DNA of 64,000 bases from Zestosphaera tikiterensis (GTDB lineage: Archaea > Thermoproteota > Thermoprotei_A > Sulfolobales > NBVN01): positions 83,700-147,699 of the forward strand of contig NBVN01000002.1 in assembly GCA_003056265.1 (NCBI GenBank). The letters run 5' to 3'. Of this stretch, positions 976 through 38,051 are shown one piece after another. The position numbers and the translations under genes were made by a program. The notes below the pieces were generated by a model that searched no databases, was not told where the DNA came from, and saw only the letters and a list, made by a program, of their open reading frames with translations. Position 1 is the first letter of the stretch, and each line of letters begins with the position of its first letter.

Positions 976-1779
976 TCACCTCAGAAGTCCCTCCATCTCT
1001 AAAGCCTCTATAAGCTTGTCGACTGCGTCTTCCCCTTTGAAGATCTGGCTTCTCCTCTTTTTCATTGGAGGAACTAAAACCTTAACAACTTGAGTTGGCG
1101 AGCCGGAAAACCCAAACCTGCTCACGTCGGCAACGTCCGCAAGGTCGTCAGCGCTCCAAACCTCTACCTTCGCTTTCCTAGCTTTCAACTTATCCTTTAA
1201 GGTCGGCAGTCTAGGTTTGTTAACGTCCTTCGTAACGGTAATTAACCCGGGGAGTTTTAACTCCATTAAGTACGGAGCCCCCAACTCCGACACAACTAGT
1301 AACTTCTCTTTCGTTACTTCCCTTATTTCCGTGACGTAAGCTATGTGTGGAATGCCTAACATCTCAGCAACTTCAGGGCCGACCTGCCCGGTATCCCCAT
1401 CAACCGTCTTCTCCCCGCAGATTATCAAGTTAAACCTCCCTAATTTTCTAATAGCGCTGGCTAAAGCGTAAGACGTTGCTAACGTATCAGCACCGGCGAA
1501 CCTCCTATCCGTAAGTAAGACCGCCCTATCCGCACCCCTAGCTATAGCATCTCTTAAAACGGATTCCGCCGCCGGAGGCGCCATACTAACCGCCGTTACC
1601 TCCCCACCCAACTTCTCTTTTATCTGTACGGCAGCTTCAAGAGCGTTTAAATCAAATGGGTTTATCTCTAAAGGAGCTGAAGACCTATCCACAACACCCT
1701 TCTCAACATCAAACCTTACTTTCTCCATGTCCGGGACTGGCTTAATAAGCACCACTATATGAAATTCGTTATCTGTCAT
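976..1779 (-). CDS. etfB: electron transfer flavoprotein beta subunit
   Basis: 267 aa ORF with a typical ETF-beta N-terminus (VVLIKPVPD) and the ICGEKTVDGDTGQVGP motif. It lies immediately upstream of etfA on the same strand. Confidence 0.88.
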   Translation of the reverse strand: MTDNEFHIVVLIKPVPDMEKVRFDVEKGVVDRSSAPLEINPFDLNALEAAVQIKEKLGGEVTAVSMAPPAAESVLRDAIARGADRAVLLTDRRFAGADTLATSYALASAIRKLGRFNLIICGEKTVDGDTGQVGPEVAEMLGIPHIAYVTEIREVTKEKLLVVSELGAPYLMELKLPGLITVTKDVNKPRLPTLKDKLKARKAKVEVWSADDLADVADVSRFGFSGSPTQVVKVLVPPMKKRRSQIFKGEDAVDKLIEALEMEGLLR

Positions 1780-2047
1780 TTTGCGTCCTCATATTCTCCT
1801 TGTACTTTGACTTTTAAAATAAAAGGTAAAAGATATTAAAGACTCCAAGATAAAGATCTAGCAATAACAAGTCTTTGAATTTCTGATGATCCTTTCCCCT
1901 ACTGTCATTATCTTAAAATCTCTATGATATTTCTTAACTAGTAGAATATTTAACTAATATTTCCCTTTTCTTTAAACTTCTTTGAGATATTAAAGAAAGA
2001 AAAAAACTTATTAATTTTGCTGTTAAGCTACATCTGTAGGCGATAAA

Positions 2048-2284
2048 ATGTCTTCTGAAGAGATCCCTTCTAAAGTAATGAAAATGGAAAAGAAAAAAGC
2101 TCCTTTATTAGTCCCTGAGTTTGGTCCATTAAAGGGAATTGTTGTTCCTAAATTCAGTAAAACCCCAGGTAAGGTGTGGAGAGGGTTCCCCGCATTAGGG
2201 CAAGGCACTGAAACTATACTTAAGAAACTATTAGATTACAGCGATGAAGAAATTAAGATGTTCAAAGAAAAGAAAATTATTTGA
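2048..2284 (+). pseudogene. C-terminal remnant of a family III (CaiB/BaiF-type) CoA-transferase
   Basis: The 78 aa ORF matches only the last ~60 residues of family III CoA-transferases (PKFSKTPGKV.R..PALGQGTETILKKLLDYSDEEIKMFKEKKII). Intact enzymes are ~400 aa, and the upstream DNA is AT-rich non-coding. Confidence 0.55.
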
Positions 2285-2295
2285 GGTGAAATGTT

Positions 2296-3444
2296 ATGGA
2301 AGGATATCCATATTTTGAGGAATTTCATAAAGACGTTGTTGATGTTGCTAGAAAAGCCGCAGAAGAATTTGCGCGGACTGCTGCTGAAGCGGATGAAAAA
2401 GAGGATTATACAATAATTGAGAGAAATCTAAAGAGATTAGGGGAGCTTGGATTTCTTGGCATAAGGATACCGACACAATATGAAGGTCAAGGACTAGATG
2501 TAAGGAGTTATGTCCTTGCACTCGAAGAAATTGCTAAGGCTTGCCCTTCTACAGCACTTTCATACGACGCTCACGTTCTCGCTACGGACTGTATCTTGCT
2601 AGCGGGAAATGAAGATCAAAAGAAAAGATACCTTCCTAAACTAGCTAAAACACATATTGGTGCTTTTGCACTTTCAGAACCATATGCCGGCTCAGACGTT
2701 GCTGCGATAAGGACGTTAGCAGAGCTTAGAAACGGTAAATACATATTGAGAGGAGAAAAACACTTCATCACTAACGGAAAAATAGCAGATGTGATAATAG
2801 TATTTGCGAAAACTGACCCCTCTAAGGGAGCAAAAGGAATTACCGCCTTCATAATTGAAAAGGACGCTCCTGGATTGAAGATAGGAAAGCTCGAATCAAA
2901 GATGGGTGTAAGAGGTTCCCCTACTACCCAGATATTTTTAGATGGGGTGGAAGTGCCGAAGGAGAACGTGCTTGGTAAGGTAAACGAAGGGTTCAAAATA
3001 GCTATGGAAGCTTTGGATATTGCAAGGATAGCGGTTGCGGCTCAGTCTATTGGAATTTCAAAAGCAGCCTATGAAACGGCATTGAAATACGCTAAGGAAA
3101 GAATTCAGTTTGGCCAACCGATTATCAACTTCCAGACAATTCAGTTTATGCTCGCTGACATGTACGTGAAAATAAAAGCTTCAGAAGGACTAACTTATCA
3201 CGCTGCCTGGCTAGCTGACAGAGGGGAAAAGGTAACCCTCCGGGCATCCGTAGCTAAGCTCTTTGCTAGTGAAGCAGCTTTGGAGATCACCGACAAAGCC
3301 ATACAAATACTCGGAGGAGTAGGTTATACCAGAGATTTCCCTGTTGAAAGGCTTCACAGAGATGCTAAAGCAATGACAATTGGAGAAGGAACATCAGAAA
3401 TACAGAGACTTATTATAGCGAGGAATATAATTTCAAGCAAATAA
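2296..3444 (+). CDS. acyl-CoA dehydrogenase
   Basis: 382 aa. Family motifs are present ([11 protein letters not shown], and a C-terminal [15 protein letters not shown] containing the catalytic Glu). Confidence 0.9.
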
Positions 3445-4893: not shown

Positions 4894-6195
4894 ATGTCCT
4901 CACAGTCTGAGGTTTTAGTTGATGAATACACTAACGGTGTGTTAGGCCCTCATAGTAGGATGGTCGGGCCTGTAGCGGATGGTGGGAGGATTGTGTTTAT
5001 AACCGCGCCTGGTTGTTGGGGGCCTATGATAACCCCGACTCTCAGAGGTGGTCATGAGGTTACGTTGCCTGTGGCTGTTGAGGGTGCTAGGGTTGGAGAC
5101 GCTGTTGTGATTTACGTTGAGTCTGTTAAGGTGTTGTCGAAAGCCTCCTCTTCAGGTGTGGATAGACCTGTTGAGGGTTCTTACGTAGGAGATCCTTACG
5201 TGATGAAGGTATGTCCGAGCTGTAGGGAGCCCTGGCCTGACTTCGAGGTTTTAGGCGTTGGTGAGGAGAGCATTAAGTGTAGGAAGTGTGGGTCGCCAGC
5301 GTCGCCGTTTAGGATGGTTCACGGCTATACTTTAGTTTTCGATGAGGTTAAGCGTTTTGGAGTTACTGTTGATTTAAAGCTAGCGTTGGAGATCGCTAGA
5401 GACGCTAGGTCTTGGAGTTCATTACCTGCTAAGTCAAAGCAGGTGCCTGTTTTAACTTTAGGTAAGGCTGACTTAGTCGGTGTAGTGTCTAGGTTGAGGC
5501 CTTTCCCAGGTCAACTCGGTACAACACCGGCTGTGGACATACCCGACTCCCACAACGCCGGTGATTTCGGTTACTTCCTTATAGACGCTCCACACCCCTA
5601 CAGAATAACGAGAGAGCAGTATGAAAGGGATTTAACAGACGGTCATTTAGACGTTGACTCGGTTAGGGAGGGTGCGGTAGTTATAGCTCCAGTTAAAGTT
5701 GATGGGGGTGGTGTGTACGCTGGCGACGTACACGCAATGCAGGGGGATGGGGAGGTAGCTGGCCACACAACAGACGTATCTGCTGAGACGCGCGTTAAGA
5801 TAAACGTAGTTAAGAATCTTAAGCTTGAGGGTCCAATCCTCCTACCGCCGGAGGAAGACCTACCGCCGCTTGCTAGGCCTTGGAGGAAAGATGAGTGGGA
5901 TGAAATCCTTAAAACCGCTAGAAAACTTGGGGTGGAGCCGGAGCCGGTAGCGCCACTACAGATAATAGGGTCTGGACCCAACATAAATGAAGCCGCTAAG
6001 AAAGGCTTTGAACGAGCTGCTAAACTCTTCAACATGAAGTTTGAGGAGGTATTAAATAGAGTTACGATAACTGGAGCGGTTGAAATCGGTAGGTTACCAG
6101 GCATTGTGCAGGTATCCATGCAGGTACCGCTGAAAACCTTAGAAAAACTTGGAATAGATGAAATCGTAGTTAAACACTATAAACTCCCATTCTAG
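4894..6195 (+). CDS. acetamidase/formamidase family protein
   Basis: 433 aa containing YAGDVHAMQGDGEVAGHTTDVS, which resembles the FmdA/AmdA family signature (G-D-x-H-A-x-Q-G-D-G-E-V). Confidence 0.75.
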   Translation: MSSQSEVLVDEYTNGVLGPHSRMVGPVADGGRIVFITAPGCWGPMITPTLRGGHEVTLPVAVEGARVGDAVVIYVESVKVLSKASSSGVDRPVEGSYVGDPYVMKVCPSCREPWPDFEVLGVGEESIKCRKCGSPASPFRMVHGYTLVFDEVKRFGVTVDLKLALEIARDARSWSSLPAKSKQVPVLTLGKADLVGVVSRLRPFPGQLGTTPAVDIPDSHNAGDFGYFLIDAPHPYRITREQYERDLTDGHLDVDSVREGAVVIAPVKVDGGGVYAGDVHAMQGDGEVAGHTTDVSAETRVKINVVKNLKLEGPILLPPEEDLPPLARPWRKDEWDEILKTARKLGVEPEPVAPLQIIGSGPNINEAAKKGFERAAKLFNMKFEEVLNRVTITGAVEIGRLPGIVQVSMQVPLKTLEKLGIDEIVVKHYKLPF

Positions 6196-6994: not shown

Positions 6995-8371
6995 TTACTT
7001 TACGTTATTGAGTGTTTCATGACTTGCCTCATGTGCTGGGGAGTCTTTTCTTGTGGGTACTTGAGATATGTATATCGTATTGTCTTTAGAGATTAAGAAG
7101 GAGGTTGCTATTGCAACCATCGCGTTAGGTAGCATTTGCAGGCCTGAAGTCATTTCGGTAACCATCAGTAAAGTAGCTATTGGGACTCTTCCAGCTGCGG
7201 CAAAGAAGCTTATCATACCTATTATGACGAATGGGGCTATGTTGGGTACGATACTTGGGAAGAGGTGTTTGAAGATAAGGCCTACGTTCGCACCTACATA
7301 CGCGCCTATGAATAGGCCTGGAGCGAAAACGCCTCCACTACCTCCGGATGCTATCGAGAATGAAGTCGCCAGTATTTTCAGGAATGGTAGGAGCGCTATT
7401 AAAAGTAGTGGGGGAAGGATTGGAGAGTATAACGCAGCAAACCTTTCATACTCAATTAAGTTTACCCAACCATAGCCAGGTCCAAGCACTTCCGGAGCTA
7501 TTAAAGCGATTAACCCCGTCACCACCCCACCCACTGCTGGCTTTATATGGTTCGGCATTCTTAACTTTTTGAAGAACGTGTTAACTTTGTAGAATGTCTT
7601 AATGTATAAGATAGCTACCAAGCCTGTGGCGAGTCCTAAAACCGCGTACATAGGTAGTTTAAGTGGGTTATATACTTCATAGTAAGGCCCGAAAACCGGG
7701 GTGAAGCCAAATACGCTTCCGAAAATCGCGTAACCAATCGCTGAAGCTATAATAGCTGGGTAAATAACCTCAGATTCTATATCTCTTTTGTAGAGTATTT
7801 CAGCCGCTAGGATTGCGCCTCCAATCGGTGCTTTGAAGATCGCTCCCACACCAGCACCGAGTCCGACAGCCAACGCTATCCTTCTATCCTTCGGGCTTAA
7901 ACGAAGTAAGTCAGCGATGACTGAGCCTACACCAGCTGAAAATAATGCTGTAGGTCCTTCCCTACCGGCACTACCTCCAGAACCTATGGTTACTGCGGAA
8001 GCTATGATTTTAACTGGTATTACAGACCACCTTATCTTGCCTTGACGGAAGTGATATGCTTTTATTGCTGCGTCAGTGCCGTGACCTTCAGCCTCGGGGG
8101 CGAAGGTATACACTATAAGACCGGAGATCAACCCACCAACAGTTGTTGAAATCGGTATGAGGAGGTAGTTTCCGGGGTTGAACGTGAAATCTAACGTACC
8201 GCCTTCACCAAGCGGTTTTGGACTGCTCATACCTATGAAGTAAGTTATGAACACCTCTTCAAATAGTTGAAGCAATATATAGAACGTAACTGCCGTTAAA
8301 CCGGCTACAACCCCGATAATAGCTCCTAAGATAAACCACTTCTCGTAGTAAGGCATTGAAGCCAGCTTCAC
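6995..8371 (-). CDS. ClC-family voltage-gated chloride channel/antiporter, without CBS domains
   Basis: 458 aa polytopic protein with the [11 protein letters not shown] and [15 protein letters not shown] motifs typical of ClC proteins. Confidence 0.85.
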
Positions 8372-8668: not shown

Positions 8669-8872
8669 TTAAGGCAGGCTTACGTTTTTAATCTTCTCGC
8701 TGGCCTGTTCTCCGCCTACACCCCAGTTTTCTTTAGGGACTTCATGAATTACTACTTCAACCGCTTCCTTCGGTATGCCTAATTCCATGAAAACCTTAGT
8801 TATGCCTGATATTACTTTCTTTTTAGCTTCGTTGGAGAAACCAAGCCATACATATACGTGAACTATAGGCAT
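8669..8872 (-). CDS. 4-oxalocrotonate tautomerase family protein
   Basis: 67 aa. It has an N-terminal Met-Pro (catalytic Pro1) followed by the tautomerase beta-alpha-beta pattern (MPIVHVYVW...EVVIHEVPKENWGVGG). Confidence 0.7.
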   Translation of the reverse strand: MPIVHVYVWLGFSNEAKKKVISGITKVFMELGIPKEAVEVVIHEVPKENWGVGGEQASEKIKNVSLP

Positions 8873-9074
8873 GGCTTAACCCACCCTCTCTAATATAGTC
8901 TGAAACTTTAATTAAACCTTCATCGTTGGGTATTCATTCTTTACTTTCGGTTTAACTTACGTTAGTTTGCCTCTATTAATGAATTTATTACAACGTAATG
9001 AGGGGTCTTACGAATGTTATACTACTTTAGTAGGCCTTATCGTTTAGAAGATAGCTATATGCGATGCTTAGCAC

Positions 9075-10640
9075 TTATGAAATTACTTGTTTTTCTAGGT
9101 ATTCTCTGTAGAAGCCTTTAAGGTTCTTGTATAGTTTAGTAAAGTATTTGAATCTCTCCTCAAGGACTTTAGTAAGCTCTGGGTCGGGGTTGAATATCTT
9201 CTCCGGTTTGACGATTTTCTTAGCTATACTGAAGTCGAATGATTTAAGCCCTACTAACCCTATTATTGACGCTCCAATAGCTGACGCCTCTCTAGCGCTG
9301 GTAACACGTATAACCTTAGTGTTAAGTAGGCTAGCTAGGAACATACATAAGCTATTGTATAACGCCCCACCGCCAACTATGTTAACGTGGTCTACCTCCT
9401 TATTGAGGAGCCTCTTATAGTATGTATACGCCCATTTAACGTTGAATGCTATACCTTCAATAACCGCCTGCGCCACGTGTTCCAACCTGTTTTCTAAGCT
9501 GATGTTTACTATTCCGCCCCTAACGTACGGATCGTCTATTGGCGACCTCTCCCCGAACAACCACGGTAAAAATAATACTTTGTTATTCTTAGGATCTATA
9601 CTTGAAGCTAGTTCGTCTATCTTTTTATATAGGTCCTCCTTAACCTCCCCAAATATTGTTTGAAGGAACCAATCTATCGTGGCAGACCCCGTTTCCTGCT
9701 CAGCTATAAGCATATACCTACCCGGTATAGCGCTAGGTAAGCAACCCATGTAATGGTATACATCTATCTTACGCCGCGGTATATGAGCTATTATCCAGTC
9801 GCTCGTCCCCACATATATATGGATTTCATAGTCTTCAACCGCTCCCGAACCTACAGCTGTGGCGGTCATATCACCACATCCAACAACTACTTTTACGTCT
9901 TTCGAAAGACCTAATTCTTCAGCTGCCTCCTTAGCTAACGTACCAACTATATCGGTTGGTTGCTTAATTTCAGGTAGTTTGCTAGCGTCTAAGCCTACCG
10001 ATTTAATAAGGCTTTCACTCCACACCACAGCGGTTGGTGTTCTAGTGTCTGTAAGCCATGTGAGGTTAGCTTCGTCGGTGCTTATAACGGTTTTTCCAGT
10101 CATCTTATACGTTAAGTAACCTTTCACATCGAGGAACTTCCACGTCTCTCTATAGATGTCTGGCTGTTCATTCATTAACCATACATACTTCGATAATGGA
10201 TCCTTACCGGCTTTGCCTGGAACGCCCCCGCTTATTTGAAGGAATTTTATTAATTTGAAGACGTTATAGCCTGCGATCTTTGGGAATCCCTTAAATAATT
10301 CGCGTGGGTAGCCGGCTGACCTAGTGTCAAGCCATGTAAGTATGTTAGTTAGTGGGGTTCCGTCCCTCGACAACGGAACTACCCCAGCCATTTGAGTATC
10401 CATCACTATCCCCATTACATCCTCCGGGTTCACGCCAGCTTCATCGATAACTTTATTCGTAGCGTCTACAAGGGCCTTCCATAACTCGTCTGGTGATTGT
10501 TCAGCATGGCCTGGCTTAGGTATATAAAGGTTGAGCTTAGCAGTTGTTTTATAGCGTATGGTGCTGTTTGCCGCATCGAATAGAACGGTCTTTATGGAAC
10601 TAGTGCCTACGTCATATGCGAAAATATACATCTGCGTCAC
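9075..10640 (-). CDS. FGGY-family carbohydrate kinase
   Basis: 521 aa. The N-terminal YIFAYDVGTSSIKTVLFD and C-terminal GGGALYNSLCMF segments fit the FGGY kinase fold. It overlaps the upstream gene by 4 nt, which suggests an operon. The likely start is GTG at 10640 or ATG three codons downstream. Confidence 0.85.
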   Translation of the reverse strand: MTQMYIFAYDVGTSSIKTVLFDAANSTIRYKTTAKLNLYIPKPGHAEQSPDELWKALVDATNKVIDEAGVNPEDVMGIVMDTQMAGVVPLSRDGTPLTNILTWLDTRSAGYPRELFKGFPKIAGYNVFKLIKFLQISGGVPGKAGKDPLSKYVWLMNEQPDIYRETWKFLDVKGYLTYKMTGKTVISTDEANLTWLTDTRTPTAVVWSESLIKSVGLDASKLPEIKQPTDIVGTLAKEAAEELGLSKDVKVVVGCGDMTATAVGSGAVEDYEIHIYVGTSDWIIAHIPRRKIDVYHYMGCLPSAIPGRYMLIAEQETGSATIDWFLQTIFGEVKEDLYKKIDELASSIDPKNNKVLFLPWLFGERSPIDDPYVRGGIVNISLENRLEHVAQAVIEGIAFNVKWAYTYYKRLLNKEVDHVNIVGGGALYNSLCMFLASLLNTKVIRVTSAREASAIGASIIGLVGLKSFDFSIAKKIVKPEKIFNPDPELTKVLEERFKYFTKLYKNLKGFYREYLEKQVIS

Positions 10641-11881
10641 TTGCTTAACTTCATGAATAACTCTTCAATGCTATAGGTCTTCCTCCCCTCAGGCCCTTCC
10701 TCAACTACTTTTATAGGTATGCCCCTCCCCATCGGCGTAGTAACGTATTTGTTAGCAAGCCTGAATAACTCCATGGGGTTAACTACGGCTTCAGGTGGGT
10801 ATACACCATACTCTTTTATCAAACCCTCCTTGATTAATAGTCCTCCTAAAGCTAGCGGTATCCCCGTACCTTCACCCATGCCGAGTCCTTTAGCAACCGT
10901 GTAGAATGTGTATTTGAATTTCACACCTTCACGCAACCCTTCAATCGTGATCATTAAGCATCCGGTGGGTTTAGTTAAACCTGCTTTCTCGAGTATCTCC
11001 TTCCTCTTCTTTAATACGTAGGCAGTCGCGAAGTCGCGTGCTTTAACAACTGTGTTATCTATTGTGACTTCTTCATCGCTAAATAACCCTGCTTTAACAA
11101 GTGTCCTTATAAGGTATGCGTACTCAGGTGGTAGGACAAGACCTAGATTAGTTACTCTTTTCTTTACGTTGATATACTTAGGTAACGTGATAGTTTCTGG
11201 GTGGGGATATAAGTATACTTTGTAAGTACCTATCTCCGGGAATTCCACGTCGTACTCAAATTCCTTGGCCAAGTCGCTATCTAGCTTAGTGTAGACTATC
11301 CTACCATCAAGGTATATAGGTATATCGATCATCATGGAATGAGCTCTATGTTGTATGACGGCAGGACCTTCATATGGTTCTCCTCCATGGGCGTGATATA
11401 TGTCGATGGCGTGAACCTCACTTAGTAGGTAGTCTGAAACCAATCTAGCAAGAATATTACTTAACCCTGGACTACTTCCCATACCGATAAGGGCTTTAAC
11501 CCCGTTCTTAACCGCCTTACTAGATAATTCAAGCATTTTAACGGTTGCGTCATAGTCGTCACATACATCCACGTAATCCACTCCCGCATCTAACGCCGTT
11601 TCTAAGACTTTAACGCCGAACCTATAGAACGGCCCCACAGCGTTTAACACTATATCGGAATCCTTCATTAGCTTCATAAGGTTACTCCTATCCTCGACGT
11701 CAACGTATTCTAACGATACAGCATGAGGGTATATCTCCTTAAAGACTTCCTTTAAAACATCCACCCTCTTATCGGCGAGGACCATCTCCTTAAAGACTCC
11801 TGAATTAACTAGGAAGAAGGAACATGCTCTGCCAACCGCACCAGCGGCTCCGAGAATAAGAACACGAGACAAATTTACCAC
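10637..11881 (-). CDS. saccharopine dehydrogenase-like NAD(P)-binding oxidoreductase
   Basis: 414 aa with an N-terminal Rossmann motif (ILGAAGAVGRA) and overall saccharopine-dehydrogenase-like length and pattern. Confidence 0.65.
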   Translation of the reverse strand: MVNLSRVLILGAAGAVGRACSFFLVNSGVFKEMVLADKRVDVLKEVFKEIYPHAVSLEYVDVEDRSNLMKLMKDSDIVLNAVGPFYRFGVKVLETALDAGVDYVDVCDDYDATVKMLELSSKAVKNGVKALIGMGSSPGLSNILARLVSDYLLSEVHAIDIYHAHGGEPYEGPAVIQHRAHSMMIDIPIYLDGRIVYTKLDSDLAKEFEYDVEFPEIGTYKVYLYPHPETITLPKYINVKKRVTNLGLVLPPEYAYLIRTLVKAGLFSDEEVTIDNTVVKARDFATAYVLKKRKEILEKAGLTKPTGCLMITIEGLREGVKFKYTFYTVAKGLGMGEGTGIPLALGGLLIKEGLIKEYGVYPPEAVVNPMELFRLANKYVTTPMGRGIPIKVVEEGPEGRKTYSIEELFMKLSK

Positions 11882-12153
11882 CGTATTATAAATAGAAATT
11901 GTTACATTTATATTTTAAACTACGTCAGCAACGCGTTGTAAAAATATGTATTTATATCGTATGTTACTTCTTAAACAACTTTAGTTAATGGATTCATTTG
12001 TTCTTACCTAGCTTCAGATTATACATGCTAGCTAATTTACTATCTATTAATGATAAGGCAGAACCTATAGTATGGTGTTATTGGAGTATATCTACAGTAA
12101 TACGTTAGTTGTTAAGCTTAGTTCTAAGCATAGTTAATACTATACTAGCTACG

Positions 12154-12657
12154 CTAGCTACGTTGCTGAAGTTTCTCCGTTATCTCCTTAACAAGTTTAT
12201 CTAGCTTATCTCTATCTTTATCTGGATCTACTACCGACAAGCAATCTACTACGTTGTATTTCATGTCTTCAAGCTCTCTCCTAAGTTTTGATGCGTAGTC
12301 CACATTAAGATCGGCTGTTGTTACGCAATATACAGGGTTGCTGTACTTTCCAGTGTGTTTAGTTATGAATGAGTATATTGGTGGTGAAGCCGCACCCCAC
12401 CATACTGGAGTAGATATTACTAATGCGTCACAGTTTTCTAGCTTAATATCACTGTTAATTAACTCAACAGGCTTTCTCATTAGGGCTTCGTAGAGTATCC
12501 TAGGGTTTAAATGGAGGAATTTATCGAAATATTCTCTAGTAGGCTTTACTAGGAAGACGTTAACATTAATGCCTGACTCCTTAAGCCTCTCCTTAATATA
12601 CTCAACTAATTTACGTGTTTTACCTGTCTTGCTATAATATACTACGCATACATTCAC
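12154..12657 (-). CDS. flavodoxin-like fold protein
   Basis: 167 aa with an N-terminal VVYYSKTGKTRKL flavodoxin-type phosphate-binding loop. Confidence 0.65.
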   Translation of the reverse strand: MNVCVVYYSKTGKTRKLVEYIKERLKESGINVNVFLVKPTREYFDKFLHLNPRILYEALMRKPVELINSDIKLENCDALVISTPVWWGAASPPIYSFITKHTGKYSNPVYCVTTADLNVDYASKLRRELEDMKYNVVDCLSVVDPDKDRDKLDKLVKEITEKLQQRS

Positions 12658-12729
12658 TAAAAGTCCCTGTTAATAAAGCATATAGCATAACTATAAATGT
12701 TTTAAAGAGGTAAAACTACATGTATTTAT

Positions 12730-13965
12730 TCATAAGCCCAACATCATCGCCAACGAGCCTTTCTTATATGCTTCGATAGCTGCCTTCAACTCTGTATTTT
12801 CCTTAGCGTATTCCTCCAGCGGTATGTTCTTTAACGTAGCCTCGATTGCTTGCCTCATGGATTTAGCCCCAGCTCTTGAACCCATTGGGTGGGCGTGAAT
12901 TGCTCCTCCAGCTGATATACCCACGTCTACCCCTAAATCCTTCATTAACTGAGGTACGTGAAGCTGTGTTATCCCTCCTGAGGGGCATGGTAGTGTTGGT
13001 TTAATACCCTCCATTGGTGCTCGAAGATATTTAGCAACTCTAATATACTTCTCCTTAGTGTAGGTTGGGACCTTACCGTATGGTGCGGGGTAAATATTCA
13101 TGTCAGCTCCAGCCAGTCTAATCAGTTTTCCAAGTATGAGTGTAGAGCTTATCCCTCCGTAGGGAGATGTGTATATAGTTCCCGCGAAGTCTATGCTATG
13201 TGCTAAGATAGGTAGCTTAATGCTTGGATCCTCAGTTAGTGATTTAAAAGCTCCTAATCCAACTGATACAGCGTTAACCATTAAGGCATTAGCGCCTAGC
13301 TCCTGTGCTTTTTCAGCTAAGTCGAATAGCTTAGGTGGATCGCTTGTTATGTTGACTGTATATAGTTTCTTCTCACCTGTCTCAGCTACTGCTTTATCTA
13401 AAGCCTCCATGAACTTCACCACCCTTTCCTCTACTTTATTATAGCTTTGATTAGCTAGTAGTTCATCGTCTTTTATAATGTCTACACCGCCAACCCATGC
13501 TTCATAAGCTAGTTTCGCACCTATATCAGGTGGGTAGTATACGCAAGGCTTTATCATAGCGACTATGAAGGGCCTTTCGTGGATTCCCATAAGGTTTCTC
13601 AACCCTTCAACGCCGTATTTAGGTCCTTTGAAGAGCTTTAGATATTCCTTAGGCATCCATATATCTAGTAGTTTTATTTTACCGTAAGCCATTATATTGC
13701 CTGTGATGGTTGAAAAGATTACTGAAATATCGGATTCGAAATTTACCCATGGAAAGCCTATAGCTATGATGAACCACCTTAACCCTTCCTTAGGCGTTTC
13801 AGTCTCGTAGTCTGGGATTTCATATACTCCTAAGACCTTCGCTCCAATGTTCCTCCGCATCTCAGGAGTCTCCATAGGAGTTCTAATCCACGTACCCGTT
13901 GTCTGCTCAGCCGCTAAAGCTCTAGCAACTACATCAGGCTCGAAGCCTGAAGATATGCCAATCAT
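12730..13965 (-). CDS. RuBisCO large-subunit family protein, RuBisCO-like (form IV-like) by active-site pattern
   Basis: 411 aa with AAEQTTGTW, ITGN, MIKPCVYY, GGVDIIKDDE, ILAHS, PSGGI and SAGGAIHAHP. Homology continues 32 codons upstream of the track start (to 14061), with no usable start codon there; see findings. Confidence 0.85.
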   Translation of the reverse strand: MIGISSGFEPDVVARALAAEQTTGTWIRTPMETPEMRRNIGAKVLGVYEIPDYETETPKEGLRWFIIAIGFPWVNFESDISVIFSTITGNIMAYGKIKLLDIWMPKEYLKLFKGPKYGVEGLRNLMGIHERPFIVAMIKPCVYYPPDIGAKLAYEAWVGGVDIIKDDELLANQSYNKVEERVVKFMEALDKAVAETGEKKLYTVNITSDPPKLFDLAEKAQELGANALMVNAVSVGLGAFKSLTEDPSIKLPILAHSIDFAGTIYTSPYGGISSTLILGKLIRLAGADMNIYPAPYGKVPTYTKEKYIRVAKYLRAPMEGIKPTLPCPSGGITQLHVPQLMKDLGVDVGISAGGAIHAHPMGSRAGAKSMRQAIEATLKNIPLEEYAKENTELKAAIEAYKKGSLAMMLGL

Positions 13966-14142
13966 GTATAAAGCTATAACGTACTTGTCTAGATCTATCG
14001 ATTCGAAGAGTAAGTCCAGAAGATCAAAATAATCAACCTTATATGGAGACGTATTTTCACCTCACATGATTGTTTAGAACAAAGGTTTATAAAACTAACG
14101 CTATGCTGAGGTTTTATAAAAGTAAAAGAACCACAATAGCTT

Positions 14143-14672: not shown

Positions 14673-15416
14673 CTAGCTTATGAATTCGTAGATATAGTCC
14701 TCAAGTTTCTGGAACTCTGGCGATCTTCTATTCCTAGGTCTTGGGAGGTTAACTTCAACTACCTTCCGTACTTCCGCAGGTCTTGGAGTTAGTATCGCGA
14801 TTCGATCAGCCATGAAGAGTGCCTCATCTATTGAATGCGTGACCATGACTACGGCTTCAACTCCTGCGACGCCGCTGAGCCATATATCCAGGAGCTCCGC
14901 CCTTAAGGCTTCTGCGGTTAATGGATCGAGATTTGAGAATGGTTCGTCGAGGAGAAGTATTTGAGGTTTTATTGCTAACGCTCTCGTGATATTCACTCTT
15001 TGTTTCATCCCTCCAGAAAGTTGATGAGGGTAGGCGTTTTCAAAGCCGCTTAAGCCAACTAACGAGAGATACTTTCGTGCTTCATCCCTAGCTTCCTTAG
15101 GTTTTATTCCAGCGCTTTCTAATGGTAGGGCTACGTTCTCAAGTATTGTAAGCCAGGGAATCAACGTCGGGAATTGAAACACGAACCCTATCCTAGGCCT
15201 TTCAGAACTTATGTGGAATTCTATAGTGCCCTTCGTAGGCTTCTCCACCCCCGCAAGTATTCTGAGGAGGGTTGATTTACCGCATCCACTCGGCCCTAGA
15301 ATAGCTAGAAACTCACGTCGAATCTCTAGGTTAATCTTATTAAGCACTTTAATCCTAACCCTGCCGGAGAGGTATTCCTTCTCCAACTCCTTAATGCTTA
15401 CTACGACTTCAGTCAT
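14673..15416 (-). CDS. ABC transporter ATP-binding protein (NitT/TauT-like)
   Basis: 247 aa with Walker A GPSGCGKST, signature LSGGMKQR and Walker B LLLDEP. Confidence 0.9.
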   Translation of the reverse strand: MTEVVVSIKELEKEYLSGRVRIKVLNKINLEIRREFLAILGPSGCGKSTLLRILAGVEKPTKGTIEFHISSERPRIGFVFQFPTLIPWLTILENVALPLESAGIKPKEARDEARKYLSLVGLSGFENAYPHQLSGGMKQRVNITRALAIKPQILLLDEPFSNLDPLTAEALRAELLDIWLSGVAGVEAVVMVTHSIDEALFMADRIAILTPRPAEVRKVVEVNLPRPRNRRSPEFQKLEDYIYEFIS

Positions 15417-16987
15417 TCCACCACCCTATACTTCATGAATGCTTGGGTGAAGAGCCACCTCCAGAAAGTTCTATTCACGATAACTATGAAGATAGCTAGG
15501 TAGAGAGCGTAAAATAATGTGGCGTTGATATCGCCACCTATGGTAGCTACGTTAAGTAGGTAGCCTATACCGAAAAATTCAATTGTTTTAGATCCTATTT
15601 GAGCGTATTCAGCTGCGATGACGCTGTTCCAAGCACCTCCCCAAGCGGCTGAAAGCCCTGCGGTAATTCTAGGCATCATCGACGGGAGGTATATTCTAGA
15701 AAACCTTTTAAACACTCCTAACCTGTATATCTGAGCCACCTCATAGAGTCTCCGTTCAGCTTCTGTAGGTGGTGCTAAAGGCGTGTTGAAAAATATATAC
15801 CAGGCGGTCCCCTGAAACAGTATCAGGAATGAAACTAATAGCGGGCTTATGAGGCCGTTTTCAACCGCTAGTGAGAATATCGACCACCAAAGGAATGCTG
15901 GCATAGATGAGAGGACTTCACCAAGCTGGATAAGGATATACTTCGCTACCTTACCATGTTCGAAGGCATAGAAACCGGCAAACGCTATGAAAGCAAATGA
16001 AGCTAAAATCGTAGTGAAGACCCTAAATAAACTATGCAGAAGCCCTACCGTTGCGTTAAACCACGGAAGCCCCGCTAGATCAACTTTTAAAGTGTTAACG
16101 TTTTTAAAAACTACGAGGCAAGCGATCGTTAAGGTCGTAAGAACTGCTGCGATAGCAAGGACTCTCGACGTTGAAGCTTTAAATAATTTCCGTAGATTTA
16201 TGCGGCTCAACACTACATCTAGGTTTCGAGTTGAGAGTAGGTAAATCACGTAATTACTGGGTGAAGGCATCCTGCCGAAGATATGTGGTGATAGAGCTCT
16301 GAAGATGTTTACCGCCGGATAAGAAACTGCGGATCCCCCAGCTAACGCAGACACCGCATTAACTAAGGGGTTCCACAACAGCATATATAGAGCTAACGAC
16401 ACCCCAGTTAGGAGGGCTACCCCTACGTATGCGCCGAGGAAATCACCTCCAGCAGTTAAGTTCACAATATCCGCTCCGATACCTCTTAACCTGAATTCCT
16501 CGCTTCCTAACGAAATAACTTCACAAGCTGTTAAGAAGAAAAGACCGCCTGCCCAGGAGACTATACTGTTGGAAGCTATTGACAGCAGCGCTGTAGGTAT
16601 GTAGATCTTAAACAATCTTGCCGCTAAGTTAAACCTATATATTGCTGACATCATCAGAAAGTCTTCAGGAACTGCTTTTACGGCTGAGTAGACGCCTAGG
16701 ATTAGATTCCACGCTTGCCCGGTAAATATGAGGATAACGGAGGCGAGCTCCGCCCCCAGCGGTGGTTGAACAGCCTTCGTTACGAGCAGTAGGACAGCAG
16801 GGAAAAAACCTAAAACAGGTATTGACTGGAGGACGTCTATTAAAGGGTAGAGAGTAGCTTCTAAGAGTTTAGACCTTCCCATAGGAATCCCTATTAGAAG
16901 TGCTGCTACGATAGACATCGTATATGCTGTTAATAGCCTCAGTAAGCTATAGGTCAGGTCCGTCAGTAGGTAGCCATAATCCATCAA
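15413..16987 (-). CDS. ABC transporter permease with duplicated (fused) transmembrane domains
   Basis: 524 aa polytopic protein. It overlaps the ATPase gene by 4 nt and has two permease-like halves. Confidence 0.8.
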   Translation of the reverse strand: MMDYGYLLTDLTYSLLRLLTAYTMSIVAALLIGIPMGRSKLLEATLYPLIDVLQSIPVLGFFPAVLLLVTKAVQPPLGAELASVILIFTGQAWNLILGVYSAVKAVPEDFLMMSAIYRFNLAARLFKIYIPTALLSIASNSIVSWAGGLFFLTACEVISLGSEEFRLRGIGADIVNLTAGGDFLGAYVGVALLTGVSLALYMLLWNPLVNAVSALAGGSAVSYPAVNIFRALSPHIFGRMPSPSNYVIYLLSTRNLDVVLSRINLRKLFKASTSRVLAIAAVLTTLTIACLVVFKNVNTLKVDLAGLPWFNATVGLLHSLFRVFTTILASFAFIAFAGFYAFEHGKVAKYILIQLGEVLSSMPAFLWWSIFSLAVENGLISPLLVSFLILFQGTAWYIFFNTPLAPPTEAERRLYEVAQIYRLGVFKRFSRIYLPSMMPRITAGLSAAWGGAWNSVIAAEYAQIGSKTIEFFGIGYLLNVATIGGDINATLFYALYLAIFIVIVNRTFWRWLFTQAFMKYRVVE

Positions 16988-18332: not shown

Positions 18333-18376
18333 ACTATGTTTTTCCTACTTGACGAGGTCATTACTTGTGGGTTGTT

Positions 18377-20038
18377 ATGAGGAGTGACGTAACTAAGGTA
18401 GGTCTGGAGAGAGCTCCGCATAGATCTCTCTATAAAGCTTTAGGAATTACCGATGAGGAGTTGGGGAAGCCTTTCATAGCTATTGCGAACTCATTTAATG
18501 AAATCATACCTGGCCATGTACACCTGCGGGAAATCGCTGAATACGTTAAAGCCGGTGTGAGGATGGCTGGAGGTGTGCCGATTGAGTTCGGCATTATTGG
18601 TGTATGTGATGGCATCGCAATGGGTCACGAAGGGATGAAGTACTCACTACCTTCCAGGGAGCTCATAGCTGACTCTATAGAGTTGATGGTTAAAGCACAT
18701 GCGTTTGACGGCTTAGTAGTTGTTGCTTCATGCGATAAGATAATCCCAGGGGCTTTAATGGCTATAGGGAGGTTGAACATACCGTCGATATTTGTTTCGG
18801 GAGGGCCTATGCTTGCTGGAACATACCGAGGTAGGAAGGTTGCCTTAAGCGATGTTTTCGAGGCTGTAGGGGCTGTGAAGTCTGGTAGGCTATCGCTTGA
18901 CGAGTTAAGTAGGCTGGAGAATCTTGCCTGCCCGAGTTGCGGGTCGTGCGCTGGTATGTACACCGCCAACACGATGAACTGCTTAAGCGAGGCTTTAGGT
19001 CTTTCCCTACCTGGGAATGGAACCGCCCCAGCACCTCTTGCCGAAAGACGTAGGATAGCTAAGTATACTGGTATGAAAATCGTTGAGCTTGTTAAGAAGG
19101 ACGTAAGGCCTAGAGACATAGCTACGAGGGAAGCTTTCCTAGACGCCATAGCCGTTGACTTAGCTCTCGGCGGGTCAACAAATACTGTGTTACATTTGCC
19201 GGCGATAGCGAGGGAGTTTAACGTTAAGATAACGTTAGATGATTTCGATGAGTTAAGCGAGAAAACACCTACGCTTGCTAAGTTAAGCCCCGCAGGCCCT
19301 TACCACATTGAGGATCTTCATGAGGCTGGAGGCGTTTTAGCCGTTATGAAGGAACTGGATAAAAAGTCCTTAATACATAAGGATAGGATGACGGTCTCGC
19401 TGAAGACTGTTGCTGAGTTGTTAAGGGGTGTTGAGGTTTTACGTCGCGACGTCATCAAACCTGTTGAGGATCCATGGAGGTTAACTGGCGGTATAAGTAT
19501 ATTGAAGGGCTCCCTCGCTCCTGAGGGGGCGGTTATTAAGGTGTCGGCGGTGGCGGAGGGGTTGACTGAGTTTGAAGGGTATGCGAAGGTATTTGATTCT
19601 GAGGAGGAGGCTGTGGAAGCCATTATGGCTGGTAAGGTAGGGCGTGGTGATGTAGTCGTAATAAGGTATGAAGGCCCTAAAGGAGGGCCTGGAATGAGGG
19701 AGATGTTAACACCTACGTCGTTAATTAGCGGTATGGGTTTGGATAGGGATGTAGCGTTGGTCACTGATGGGAGGTTTTCCGGCGCTACGAGAGGTATATG
19801 CGTTGGTCATGTGTCGCCTGAAGCTGCTGAGGGAGGGCCTATAGCCGTGGTTAAAGATGGTGATCCAATCAGAATAGACTTGAAAAAGAAGAGTATAGAC
19901 CTGCTGCTTTCAAGTGATGAAATTAAGGAGAGGCTCTCGAGGTGGAGGCCTCCGGAGCCGAAGGTTAGGGAAGGATACCTCATTAGGTATTCGAAGCTTA
20001 CATCTTCAGCTAGTACTGGAGCTGTGTTCAGGTGGTGA
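18377..20038 (+). CDS. ilvD: dihydroxy-acid dehydratase (IlvD/Edd family)
   Basis: Family motifs are present ([32 protein letters not shown]). I prefer the ATG at 18377 ([17 protein letters not shown]) over the track TTG at 18365. Confidence 0.9.
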
Positions 20039-32129: not shown

Positions 32130-32223
32130 CGCGGCCTGCGGCCGCGACTCCGGTTGATCCTGCCGGACCCGACCGCTATCGGGGTGAGGCTAAGCCATGG
32201 GAGTCGAACGCCTCGAACACCGA

Positions 32224-32257
<34 letters not shown>

Positions 32258-32423
32258 CTACCCTCGGGACGGGGACAGTCCCGGGAAACTGGGGCTAATA
32301 CCCGATAGGTGAGGGCGCCTGGAAGGGTCCCTCACCGAAAGGGCTTCACGGGGATGTCCGTGAAGCCGCCCGAGGATGGGGCCACGGCCTATCAGGTAGT
32401 TGGCGGGGTAACGGCCCGCCAAG

Positions 32424-32462
<39 letters not shown>

Positions 32463-32469
32463 ATGGGCC

Positions 32470-32839: not shown

Positions 32840-33511
32840 ATGGAGGAATCTTGGGCAGGACCGCTTTATAGGGGGAAGTTTCTATTTACAATATTTACAA
32901 TAGGGAGTTATGATGTGTGAAGCATACTTAGCTGGATTAATAGCTGCTGATGGACACATTAATCCTAAGGATTACTCGATAACAATATATACGGGTGATC
33001 TTGGGAGAGCACAGACTATAAAGAATATGCTGGAAAAGCTAACCTGCAATAAAGTTAGTATCAGAAACCATAATGGAGCATATGAAGTCACTGTAACAGA
33101 TAAGAAGCTTACATTAAAGTTTTCCACTAAATACATGATCCCTATTGGTAGGAAGTCTGAACAAATAATATTACCAACAACCAATATTAATAAGAGGGAA
33201 TTATTAGAATTCATAGCTGGATACTTTGATGGTGACGGCTCAATATACAGACGTATACATAGGGCAAGGGATGGTAGAATCAGAGTTTACTACGAGGTAA
33301 AAGTTAAGAGTAAGAGCTTATACTTCCTTAATCAATTGAGAAACCTACTTGCCTCATACAACATAGTTTCTCGTGTGAAAGTATATAAAAACATGATTCC
33401 GTACCTTGTTGTTTCACGTAAAGGCGATGTTATACGGTTCTTTAGAATTTTTAAACCAAGATTTAAAAACCTTTAAAACCCCTAAACCCTGCCTGGGATC
33501 CTCCACCCCAA
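32840..33511 (+). other. 16S intron 2 (672 nt) carrying a LAGLIDADG ORF
   Basis: It interrupts CTCCCGGGGTA | GGGGCGAAATCCGATAATCCCGGGAGGACC. The termini GGAGGAATCTTGGGCAGG and CCTGCCTGGGATCCTCC are complementary, and the interior is AT-rich. Confidence 0.85.
32910..33476 (+). CDS. double-motif LAGLIDADG homing endonuclease (intron-encoded)
   Basis: 188 aa with LAGLIAADG and IAGYFDGDG motifs ~100 residues apart. It lies wholly inside the 16S intron. Confidence 0.88.
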   Translation: MMCEAYLAGLIAADGHINPKDYSITIYTGDLGRAQTIKNMLEKLTCNKVSIRNHNGAYEVTVTDKKLTLKFSTKYMIPIGRKSEQIILPTTNINKRELLEFIAGYFDGDGSIYRRIHRARDGRIRVYYEVKVKSKSLYFLNQLRNLLASYNIVSRVKVYKNMIPYLVVSRKGDVIRFFRIFKPRFKNL

Positions 33512-35909: not shown

Positions 35910-36635
35910 GCCACTTATCTCTCCGCCAATTTTAAAATGAATCGTACTGCATAATAATGGGTCGAGTATGTAAAATGACTGAGAGGATATATTTAAAAGC
36001 ATATATTGCTGGTGCTTTAAGAGACGGTTACATTGGAAGGTATGTAGAAAGAAAGAATAGCAAGGAGCATTGGGTGCTGAGAATATATAGCAAGGATGTA
36101 GAATGGCTTAATGAATTGGTTAAAATACTCAAGTACGCATATGGATTTGAGACAAATGTGATAATCCCACATAGAGGTATACCGTATATAGAGAAATACT
36201 CAAAGAAAATAGTGGAGCATATCGCTAAAGAGTTAAACCACCCAATAGGTAAATCAATAAACTGGGACACGCCAATGTTCATTAAAAACACCAACGATAA
36301 GGGTATATGGAGGTATTACATAGCTGGATTCTTCGATGCAGAGGGTGGAGTGGATATAACTAAGAAGCAATTGAAGATATACCAATCATGGAGAGGTGAA
36401 GTATGTCCCCCATTAATGGATATAAAAGATAAGATGCTAACTCTTTTTGGAATAGAGAGTGGGGAAGTATCCAGGTACCCTAATAGAAGATACAACCCAA
36501 GATTCGTTGTAAGAATAAAGAAAAAATACACATATATGTTTTACAAAACTTTCCCATTATTAAACCCATCTAAAATAAACAAGATCAAGCTCATTATTTA
36601 AATCCTTTTAGGGCGGAGGGATGGTGGCCGCAAAA
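35910..36635 (+). other. 23S intron 3 (726 nt) carrying a LAGLIDADG ORF
   Basis: It interrupts GAGTGCGTAA | CAGCTCACCCGCCGAGG. The termini GCCACTTATCTCTCCGCC and GGCGGAGGGATGGTGGC are complementary. Confidence 0.85.
35957..36601 (+). CDS. double-motif LAGLIDADG homing endonuclease (intron-encoded)
   Basis: 214 aa with YIAGALRDG and IAGFFDAEG motifs. Confidence 0.85.
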   Translation: MGRVCKMTERIYLKAYIAGALRDGYIGRYVERKNSKEHWVLRIYSKDVEWLNELVKILKYAYGFETNVIIPHRGIPYIEKYSKKIVEHIAKELNHPIGKSINWDTPMFIKNTNDKGIWRYYIAGFFDAEGGVDITKKQLKIYQSWRGEVCPPLMDIKDKMLTLFGIESGEVSRYPNRRYNPRFVVRIKKKYTYMFYKTFPLLNPSKINKIKLII

Positions 36636-37462: not shown

Positions 37463-38046
37463 CGGGGGTCTCCCACCCGCTAGCAACACGGTAGTTTATA
37501 CTTATTACATGGGTGGAAAAGATGCAACTGGGACTGGTGAGGTAATGAGGCCAGAAATAATAGGATATGTTGTGGGCTTCATTGATGCTGAAGGGAGTTT
37601 CTCAGTGAGCGTGAAGTTACAGAAAGACGTTGTATATGGAGTGAGGCTTGATCCCGTCTTCAGCATAACTCAGCAAGGGAGGGAGCCTCTTGAAGTTATC
37701 GCTGATGTACTTAATGCGGGAAGAATAATTCGAAAGCCTGGTCAAAGACACCTGTGGTTGCTTATAGTAGATAGAATGAGTGAGCTGACTCAGAGCTTAA
37801 TACCGTTCTTGGACAAATACAGGGATCTCCTTCTAGCTAAGAGAGAAATATATGAGCTGTTTAGGGAGATAGTCATTGGCTTGCATAGTGGAATGCATAA
37901 AAGACCTGCGGGTCTTAAGAAGCTTGTGACTTTATCTTACAGCCTCTCTAGATTGAACTCGAAGGCCCATAGAAAGAGGGCCCTTAAACAAATTTTAGAA
38001 ATAATCGATTCCCGTGTTGCCGAGTGGGGGGAGCCCCCGGGAGATA
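37463..38046 (+). other. 23S intron 4 (584 nt) carrying a single-motif LAGLIDADG ORF
   Basis: It interrupts GGTAACTCTGACCCTCTTAA | GGTAGCCAAATGCCTTGCCGGGTAAG. Confidence 0.85.
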
Positions 38047-38051
38047 GGTAG
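37509..38051 (+). CDS. single-motif LAGLIDADG homing endonuclease (intron-encoded)
   Basis: 180 aa with one VVGFIDAEG motif near the N-terminus. The stop codon TAG (38049-38051) lies in the downstream exon sequence GGTAGCC. Confidence 0.85.
   Translation: MGGKDATGTGEVMRPEIIGYVVGFIDAEGSFSVSVKLQKDVVYGVRLDPVFSITQQGREPLEVIADVLNAGRIIRKPGQRHLWLLIVDRMSELTQSLIPFLDKYRDLLLAKREIYELFREIVIGLHSGMHKRPAGLKKLVTLSYSLSRLNSKAHRKRALKQILEIIDSRVAEWGEPPGDR

Follow-up and report, generated by a model that had tools for sequence, protein, structure and literature searches.

A RuBisCO-like protein (RLP) is encoded on the minus strand of a 64,000-nucleotide stretch of the Zestosphaera tikiterensis genome (assembly GCA_003056265.1, contig NBVN01000002.1, positions 83,700 to 147,699; hereafter the window), close to an FGGY-family carbohydrate kinase and a saccharopine-dehydrogenase-like (SDH-like) enzyme. 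We consider it reasonably probable that the RLP, which represents a large form IV clade, and these two adjacent enzymes make up one metabolic module, with a proposed route of amine-to-carbonyl conversion, phosphorylation and enolisation. The RLP clade is an uncharacterised subfamily, set apart by its active-site signature and by the conserved association of three enzymes.

Membership of the RLP in the RuBisCO superfamily was evident from its matches to PF02788 and PF00016 and from its KDDE metal/carbamate motif. An AlphaFold 2 (AF2) model of the protein (pLDDT 88) matched RuBisCO and RLP structures with Foldseek TM scores of 0.83-0.87. The score of the RLP fell below every curated NCBIfam cut-off, including those of the MtnW models NF007095 (342 vs. 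409 bits) and TIGR03332 (296 vs. 514 bits), the form III model TIGR03326 (281 vs. 497 bits), the OiaX model NF042437 (173 vs. 700 bits) and the form II model (160 vs. 489 bits). A neighbour-joining tree with 60 bootstraps was built from 119 sequences, comprising representatives of a 50% clustering of an exhaustive HMMER search, members of the window clade, the form III RuBisCO 1geh and the Geobacillus kaustophilus enolase. The window clade formed its own group, free of sequences with the YkrW signature or the full RuBisCO signature, in 60/60 bootstraps. In the same 60/60 it lay on the YkrW side of the tree, not on the carboxylase side, and in none of the 60 did the YkrW clade take it in.

Active-site residues were numbered after the Thermococcus kodakarensis form III RuBisCO, whose sequence is identical to that of PDB entry 1geh. 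The positions were mapped by BLASTP against this protein (32% identity) and by a MAFFT alignment of the 119 sequences, and the two methods agreed. First, the residues that the preliminary description had listed as kept were indeed kept, namely E60, T65, W66, N123, K175, K201/D203/E204 (within an IKDDE motif), S379-G381 and G403-G404. Second, the replacements that it had claimed were found as well: K177 is Cys, R295 is Ser and position 327 lacks His, being Asn or Ile depending on the alignment used. In addition, H294 and K334 are kept, H298 is lost (Phe/Ala) and T173 is replaced by Met. In all, fifteen catalytic and P1-site positions are retained. The lost residues (K177, R295, H298 and H327), the score below the form III cut-off and the tree all agree with the form IV, non-carboxylating pattern that had been suggested. 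A form III placement with all catalytic residues did not occur by any of these measures (residues, 281 vs. 497 bits, 60/60 bootstraps), and the RLP is classified by its sequence as form IV, neither MtnW nor form III.

The same residues were surveyed in 76 clade RLPs, drawn from 80 genome loci and the window. E60, W66, N123, K175, K201, D203, E204, H294, K334, G380, G381 and G403 were invariant (76/76), and Lys177, Arg295, His298 or His327 was found in none (0/76). Position 177 was Cys in 72/76 and position 295 was Met in 66/76. The distal phosphate site of RuBisCO (R295 and H327, plus H298 and K177) is occupied by uncharged residues in nearly all clade members. Since this site is replaced, ribulose 1,5-bisphosphate (RuBP) would not be the substrate of the RLP, and bisphosphate substrates are disfavoured by the missing R295, H327 and H298. 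The invariant K334 and E60 suggest that the closure of loop 6 over an anionic intermediate is retained.

The conservation of the neighbourhood was assessed by scanning one genome per GTDB species, and a relative of the RLP was found in at least 587 genomes. The best 80 of these loci together with the window (81 clade loci) were analysed by tblastn, open reading frame (ORF) clustering and hidden Markov model (HMM) searches. An FGGY kinase gene was present in 62/81 loci, many of the remaining loci being short contigs; an SDH-like gene was present in 34/81, and a class-III aminotransferase (AT3) gene, the fourth commonest neighbour, in 24/81. The arrangement is operon-like with variable gene orders (SDH-FGGY-RLP, AT3-FGGY-RLP, FGGY-RLP-SDH, FGGY-RLP-AT3 and SDH-RLP-FGGY). 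The archaeal carriers belong to the Desulfurococcales, Bathyarchaeia, Thor-, Jord-, Baldr- and Hodarchaeota, Hadarchaeales, Archaeoglobus, Thermoplasmata and Methanofastidiosia, and the bacterial carriers to the Anaerolineae, Dehalococcoidia (Chloroflexota), Bacillota, Caldisericota and Geothermincola. Thus, the recurrence of neighbours in related genomes, on which the preliminary description had staked its reading, was found for both the kinase and the SDH-like enzyme, in varying gene orders and in Bacteria as well as Archaea; the module is not specific to archaea. As a negative control, we inspected 71 loci from a metagenome scan whose RLP is at most 49% identical to that of the window, and FGGY, SDH-like, AT3 and class II aldolase genes were near the RLP in none of them (0/71). 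The absence of these partners from the distant loci indicates that the kinase linkage is specific to the window clade.

The 62 FGGY-containing loci were then compared for the SDH-like and AT3 genes. The SDH-like gene alone occurred in 32, AT3 alone in 22, neither in 8 and both in 0 (Fisher p = 1.7e-10, not corrected for phylogeny). The module pattern, an FGGY kinase with exactly one of the two, was therefore present in 54/62 loci, the window among them: its RLP, SDH-like and FGGY genes lie inside 5 kb and AT3 is absent. Independent gene calls with Pfam labels agreed with this pattern. In the metagenome scan, nine loci with an RLP 65-82% identical carried FGGY plus SDH-like or AT3, some of them split; RLPs at 82% identity were of the SDH type and those at 72-75% were of the AT3 type. 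AT3 takes the slots of the SDH-like gene, either immediately 5' of FGGY or immediately 3' of the RLP. Moreover, the two types are interleaved in the FGGY tree: the SDH-type kinases of the window, L014 and L001 are sister to the AT3-type kinase of L002, and a Dehalococcoidia SDH-type group is nested among AT3-type bacteria. Such a distribution is what repeated non-orthologous displacement would leave behind, and not what two separate pathways would.

The nature of the SDH-like enzyme was approached through its AF2 model (pLDDT 92). Its best Foldseek match, which supports the family assignment, was carboxyspermidine dehydrogenase (8deb, TM 0.78), and other matches were the L-lysine dehydrogenase of Pyrococcus horikoshii, saccharopine reductase, the saccharopine dehydrogenase domain of human AASS, BioU and homospermidine synthase. 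Among the nearest solved structures, every one whose function is stated is a C-N oxidoreductase. The protein did not reach the carboxynorspermidine synthase equivalog (44 vs. 800 bits). L-lysine dehydrogenase and BioU can functionally substitute for lysine 6-aminotransferase and BioA, respectively, both of the replaced enzymes being class-III aminotransferases. From the SDH/AT3 displacement, the C-N structural neighbours and this precedent, we infer that the module holds an amine/carbonyl interconversion. The SDH-like protein is most likely an amine/imine (C-N) dehydrogenase, as judged from its modelled fold, and the pathway probably includes an amine/carbonyl step. The sugar or sugar-acid pathway of the preliminary description was supported as far as the kinase, oxidoreductase and RLP set is concerned; a plain sugar or sugar-acid route is less probable, since AT3 replaces the oxidoreductase elsewhere and the pathway is probably amine-linked. 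Two motifs of the SDH-like family, a His-rich invariant segment (YHAHGGE..EGPAV..HRxHSM) and YPHPET, may mark a metal- or phosphate-binding site.

We propose the following order of reactions. In step 1, the SDH-like NAD(P) enzyme would act on a hydroxylated substrate and replace its amine (C-N) function by a carbonyl, a role that would be played elsewhere by the pyridoxal-phosphate-dependent AT3. In step 2, the xylulokinase-like FGGY kinase would phosphorylate a terminal hydroxyl to give a keto-sugar-like monophosphate. In step 3, the RLP would hold the single phosphate in its conserved P1 site (T65, G380/G381, G403/G404), coordinate the carbonyl via Mg2+ on carbamylated K201, D203 and E204, and enolise the substrate. 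The outcome could be a 1,3-isomerisation that moves the carbonyl, like that of the Rhodospirillum rubrum RLP, or C-C chemistry on the enediolate. In step 4, a class II aldolase would release dihydroxyacetone phosphate and an aldehyde in several lineages. A further redox step might be contributed by an FMN protein, which would be flavodoxin-like here and nitroreductase-like or OYE elsewhere. Candidate substrates are amino-polyols, amino sugars and hydroxylated amino acids; the amine step might instead be an aldehyde/amine conversion on the product side.

The partners of these steps were assigned to families. The kinase belongs to the FGGY family (FGGY_N 148 bits, FGGY_C 91 bits); its best NCBIfam match was XylB (264 bits vs. 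a cut-off of 380), and no equivalog was reached. Class II aldolase genes adjoin the cluster in Bathyarchaeia, together with an MFS transporter, and in AT3-type Desulfurococcales loci. Their best matches were ribulose-1-phosphate (Ru1P) aldolase, FucA or L-ribulose-5-phosphate (L-Ru5P) 4-epimerase, all below cut-off, and those to MtnB were weaker (84 bits vs. a cut-off of 137). The FMN-type partner appears in different folds: a nitroreductase-like gene is embedded in the cluster in seven loci (L005, L011, L035, L054, L057, L069 and L089), an OYE or PNPOx-like protein occurs in Thorarchaeota and the flavodoxin-like protein in the window lineage.

Several observations weigh against a single module of this kind. 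Every chemical step is drawn from family resemblance. The kinase, the SDH-like enzyme and AT3 all score far under curated cut-offs. The window has no class II aldolase, and expression of its RLP is uncertain because the conserved start position does not hold a canonical codon. In addition, the genes are not always together. Two Thermofilaceae loci (L086, 8001-12850; L089, 9418-12751) have an orthologous SDH-FGGY pair with no RLP within 8-10 kb, the pair of L086 adjoining a GH51 alpha-L-arabinofuranosidase gene. The cultured Archaeoglobus neptunius (L087, 8001-10542) has SDH-like and RLP genes separated by 4 nt, and the 8 kb around them hold no FGGY kinase. In three Desulfurococcales-like loci, AT3 lies at a distance of 7 kb and a kinase is likewise absent from the surrounding 8 kb. 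The split loci fit a module of dispersible genes, yet they also sustain the view that the SDH-like enzyme acts on sugars.

That view is the first of four alternatives, and we regard it as unlikely. The SDH-like enzyme would be an ordinary sugar/polyol dehydrogenase in a pentose or pentitol catabolism free of amines, leading from a polyol to a ketose and on through the kinase, the RLP as isomerase and an aldolase, and the AT3-type loci would serve a different pathway. The xylulokinase-like character of the kinase, the GH51 gene beside one Thermofilaceae SDH-FGGY pair, the resemblance of the class II aldolases to Ru1P aldolase or L-Ru5P epimerase and weak Pfam matches (Epimerase and 3Beta_HSD) on the Rossmann domain of the SDH-like protein are all consistent with it. 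However, the function-stated structures nearest to the SDH-like protein (TM 0.5-0.8) all act on C-N bonds, and GFO/IDH-fold sugar dehydrogenases appeared only at TM <0.45. Furthermore, SDH-like and AT3 genes occupy the same slot, exclude each other and switch within orthologous FGGY and RLP lineages, which is hard to explain by two unrelated pathways.

A variant, possibly anaerobic, methionine salvage pathway is quite unlikely. The RLP would be a 2,3-diketo-5-methylthiopentyl-1-phosphate enolase (MtnW), with the FGGY kinase replacing MtnK, the class II aldolase acting as MtnB, and AT3 or the SDH-like enzyme making methionine from the keto acid. The best HMM and PDB matches of the RLP are indeed MtnW proteins (PRK09549, 342 bits; 2oej, 5.6e-75), JGI labels its homologues MtnW, and the class II aldolase, aminotransferase and HAD hydrolase (L088) of its relatives resemble an mtnK/W/X/B/E set. 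Nevertheless, the RLP is under both MtnW cut-offs (342 < 409; 296 < 514), and the window clade is outside the YkrW clade in 60/60 bootstraps. K98 of the G. kaustophilus enolase, at the position of RuBisCO N123, was reportedly identified as the catalytic base by Imker et al. in 2007; this position is Asn in 76/76 clade members. K334 is kept here but is Ser, Thr or Asn in enolases. The aldolases match MtnB only weakly (84 vs. 137 bits), with better matches to Ru1P aldolase and FucA. Finally, no MtnK-like or cupin (MtnD-like) gene was seen in the Pfam tables of the inspected loci, an IF-2B/MtnA-like gene not having been specifically searched, and nothing among the scanned window ORFs was annotated as mtnK, mtnA, mtnB, mtnX or mtnD.

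It is very improbable that the RLP carboxylates or decarboxylates a monophosphorylated keto compound with its retained RuBisCO catalytic set. In RuBisCO, K334 stabilises the carboxylated intermediate. K175, K201, D203, E204, H294, N123, E60 and the loop-6 K334 are invariant in 76/76; with these residues RuBisCO carries out enolisation, the addition of CO2 and the cleavage of the C-C bond. The lost residues are mostly distal-phosphate ligands or second-shell, which favours this alternative. A precedent, cited in PMC6302742, is given by RLPs acting on 3-oxo-isoapionate 4-phosphate downstream of a kinase. However, the OiaX model gave just 173 bits against a cut-off of 700, and the conserved residues fit an isomerase equally.

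A coincidental neighbourhood, or a decaying RLP gene with no joint function in this organism, is hardly credible. In its favour, the conserved start position is ACG, the ATG upstream of it runs into TGA, and a look-up of the SDH-like protein of the window in the gene-call collection gave no exact match. Against it, nothing else disrupts the frame of 440 codons, whose product shares 92% identity with a homologue, every invariant residue is kept, Shine-Dalgarno-like and TATA-like motifs are rightly placed, and the linkage persists across two domains of life and through gene-order rearrangements, whereas the negative control was clean.

Where the RLP gene starts deserves a separate account. The preliminary description ended the cluster at 14067, and this position is an ATG with TGA as the very next codon; hence it is not the RLP start. 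The first canonical in-frame start is the ATG at 13965, which would give 411 aa. RLP homologues that are 74-92% identical have 440-443 aa, and their alignment begins 29 codons upstream of this ATG. The conserved start position falls in the window on ACG (14052..14050), which is ATG or TTG in orthologues, and by homology we place the putative RLP start there. A GAGG/GGGG core at the Shine-Dalgarno-like position aligns among close relatives. In the AF2 model, Met30 (the internal ATG) lies within the first beta-strand (residues 24-34); because of this, a start at 13965 would cut a conserved structural element. The missing canonical start could be explained by ACG initiation, by a sequencing error or by a recent start-codon mutation.

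The features of the locus are collected in the table. The minus strand from 8669 to 14067 holds five ORFs (RLP, flavodoxin-like, SDH-like, FGGY kinase and 4-oxalocrotonate tautomerase). The ORF listing and Pfam matches for all five agree with the single-strand cluster first described, and the 4-nt overlap of the kinase and SDH-like genes was located at 10637-10640. The gene order in the window is RLP-flavodoxin-SDH-FGGY. Pfam E-values were 2e-50 for RuBisCO_large, 3e-43 for FGGY_N, 4e-17 for Sacchrp_dh_NADP and 5e-15 for Tautomerase. The matches of the flavodoxin-like protein were weaker: Flavodoxin_5 (37.7 bits) and FMN_red (32.6 bits) exceeded their cut-offs, and Flavodoxin_1 and Flavodoxin_2 fell below theirs. 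The nearest relatives of the cluster genes come from Desulfurococcales/Thermoprotei metagenome-assembled genomes.

Coordinates of the RLP cluster, the genes upstream of it and its putative upstream signals in the window
Feature	Position	Strand	Remarks
RuBisCO-like protein (RLP), form IV	12730..14052	-	440 aa if ACG is the start; Pfam RuBisCO_large and RuBisCO_large_N
Flavodoxin-like / FMN-reductase-like protein	12154..12657	-	167 aa; Pfam Flavodoxin_5, FMN_red
SDH-like (saccharopine-dehydrogenase-family) NAD(P) enzyme	10637..11881	-	414 aa; Pfam Sacchrp_dh_NADP and Sacchrp_dh_C
FGGY-family carbohydrate kinase, xylulokinase-like	9075..10640	-	521 aa; Pfam FGGY_N and FGGY_C
4-oxalocrotonate-tautomerase-family protein	8669..8872	-	67 aa; begins MPIVHVY; TIGR00013
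ABC transporter ATPase	14673..15416	-	directly upstream of RLP; Pfam ABC_tran
ABC transporter fused permease	15413..16987	-	upstream of RLP; Pfam BPD_transp_1
GAGGTGA, Shine-Dalgarno-like	14057..14063	-	4 nt upstream of ACG; read from the sequence
TTTTATAAA, putative archaeal TATA-box-like element	14086..14094	-	about 38 nt upstream of ACG; function predicted

Not every neighbour in the window belongs to the conserved set. The preliminary description had grouped all four neighbours with the RLP; the kinase and the oxidoreductase are conserved, but the flavodoxin-like gene does not extend beyond the closest relatives and the tautomerase is not conserved. Flavodoxin-like homologues near the cluster were detected only in L014 (62%) and in L088 and L092 (40%), and this gene is a lineage-restricted accessory. 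The tautomerase belongs to its family (TIGR00013, 62.7 bits vs. a cut-off of 56.9; Pro after the initiator Met). No homologue of it was found near the RLP in loci L001-L170, save one 8 kb off in L008, and it is probably outside the module. Membership of the ABC transporter is uncertain: other loci gave weak ABC-ATPase matches, and other lineages have MFS transporters instead. A homologue search of the window found no class II aldolase, class-III aminotransferase or nitroreductase.

Other genes near the RLP were considered and set aside. The folate-enzyme genes (FTHFS/FolD/FTCD) beside the Thorarchaeota RLP look like lineage synteny, not like part of the module. The bacterial genes between AT3, FGGY and RLP (Zn-ADH, GNAT, methyltransferase, SDR, MFS, DUF2848 and CN-hydrolase) are heterogeneous and reveal no consistent extra step. 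A link to autoinducer-2 (AI-2) and P-DPD, prompted by the FGGY kinase and by a SorC-type regulator beside the RLP of Anaerofustis stercorihominis, was also rejected: the kinase scored 121 bits for LsrK vs. 264 bits for XylB, and the Anaerofustis RLP is in a different subclade. That RLP, from a human-gut bacterium (L090, 8725-11332), is related to the window RLP (44% identity) and has the N123/C177/K334 signature in common with it. The regulator that it adjoins is of the sugar-phosphate-binding type, and FGGY, SDH-like and AT3 partners are absent.

Further observations were made in the loci. In AT3-type archaeal loci the RLP is adjoined by a small protein (about 115-120 aa) whose domain is PF25653 (HMG-CoA_red_N-like) (L081, 9537-9884; L082, 9538-9900; also L002, L003, L041, L052 and L053). 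It is divergently oriented where checked (L081, L082 and L002) and had no NCBIfam match. The SDH-FGGY pair of L089 is preceded by a nitroreductase-like gene, with an AMP-phosphorylase-like gene nearby. Among distant RuBisCO-family proteins, P0185 and P0244 (726 and 742 aa) are fusions of an IF-2B-family (R15P/MTR-1-P isomerase-like) domain with RuBisCO, and P0225 (552 aa) is an RLP fused to a cupin domain; the IF-2B and cupin fusions are uninformative on the window clade.

Elsewhere in the window, the cluster is flanked at 976..3444 by an electron transfer flavoprotein (ETF) subunit and an acyl-CoA dehydrogenase, at 4894..6195 by a formamidase/acetamidase-family protein, at 6995..8371 by a ClC channel and at 18365..20038 by an IlvD/Edd-family dehydratase. 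None of the ETF, acyl-CoA dehydrogenase, formamidase, ClC and IlvD/Edd genes is conserved beside the RLP elsewhere. The rRNA operon (32147-39097) bears large insertions, with a small-subunit match of 2301 nt against a 1478-nt model and a large-subunit match of 4507 nt against a 2987-nt model. The insertions encode three LAGLIDADG homing-endonuclease ORFs, one in the 16S gene (32910..33476) and two in the 23S gene (35957..36601 and 37509..38051).

In the searchable full-text literature, no paper tied an RLP to an FGGY kinase or an SDH-like enzyme, and none named the clade. Given its Archaeoglobus carriers, the clade may correspond to the lineage that Tabita called 'IV-Aful'. Homologues in public databases are labelled generically or as MtnW, and the source names of neighbouring RLP clusters are generic too. 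Metagenome papers and pipelines routinely call archaeal form IV proteins methionine-salvage enolases, and the window clade fails the defining tests of that assignment. The clade is widespread (at least 587 species genomes, including several Asgard lineages) in anaerobic archaea and bacteria, and its compact, conserved three-gene context makes the discovery of its function directly testable. The repeated swap of the SDH fold for a class-III aminotransferase is a clue to an amine on the substrate. The unusually RuBisCO-like active site bears on the gain or loss of carboxylation in the superfamily. If the RLP did perform CO2 chemistry on a substrate other than RuBP, it would be a widespread enzyme and might mark a functional bridge between RLPs and true RuBisCO.

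Compared with known systems, the window RLP is matched best in both sequence and structure by MtnW/YkrW (2oej and 2oek of G. kaustophilus, 2zvi of Bacillus subtilis), with about 33-40% identity and Foldseek TM scores of 0.84-0.9. The fold, K175, the carbamylatable K201, D203, E204 and H294 are common to both, and both have lost K177 and R295; a substrate with a single phosphate is likely for both. The N123 position distinguishes them, being Asn in the window RLP and 76/76 of its clade but Lys in all 12 sequences that cluster with the G. kaustophilus enolase. Likewise, the E60 site is Glu in the window clade and Gly in the enolase, the K334 site is Lys in the clade and Ser, Thr or Asn in the enolases, and the gene context of the clade differs in having no mtn genes. 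The form III RuBisCO 1geh is 32% identical to the window RLP and has E60, T65, W66, N123, K175, K201, D203, E204, H294, K334, S379, G380/381 and G403/404 in common with it. In contrast, K177, R295, H298 and H327 are replaced here, the distal phosphate site is gone, and the cluster has no AMP phosphorylase or R15P isomerase partner.

The R. rubrum-type RLP (5-methylthioribulose-1-phosphate 1,3-isomerase, 'DeepYkrW') shifts a carbonyl along a monophosphorylated ketose, and by analogy such a shift is the most likely type of reaction for the window RLP. The window RLP itself is apparently not of the R. rubrum type. A cupin partner is typical of the R. rubrum context, and no cupin gene was seen in the clusters of the window clade. 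The RLP-cupin fusion P0225, which mirrors the R. rubrum context, is in another clade with P0230 and P0242 and has a KDDH motif; the tree did not include the R. rubrum RLP. The SDH-like enzyme shares its fold with L-lysine 6-dehydrogenase (3abi) and BioU (6k36), which stand in comparably for a class-III aminotransferase; its identity to them is 16-22%. To our knowledge, the functions established for RLPs are few, namely those of MtnW as an enolase, of the R. rubrum RLP as an isomerase and of the enzymes of the apiose pathway. The apiose-pathway RLPs (the OiaX decarboxylase and the transcarboxylase/hydrolase) share the logic proposed here, in which the keto compound formed by an oxidoreductase is phosphorylated by a kinase and the resulting keto-phosphate is the substrate of the RLP. 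The RLPs cited in PMC6302742, which follow a kinase, decarboxylate or transcarboxylate 3-oxo-isoapionate 4-phosphate. The kinase is of the FGGY family in the window module and of the DUF1537 type in the apiose pathway.

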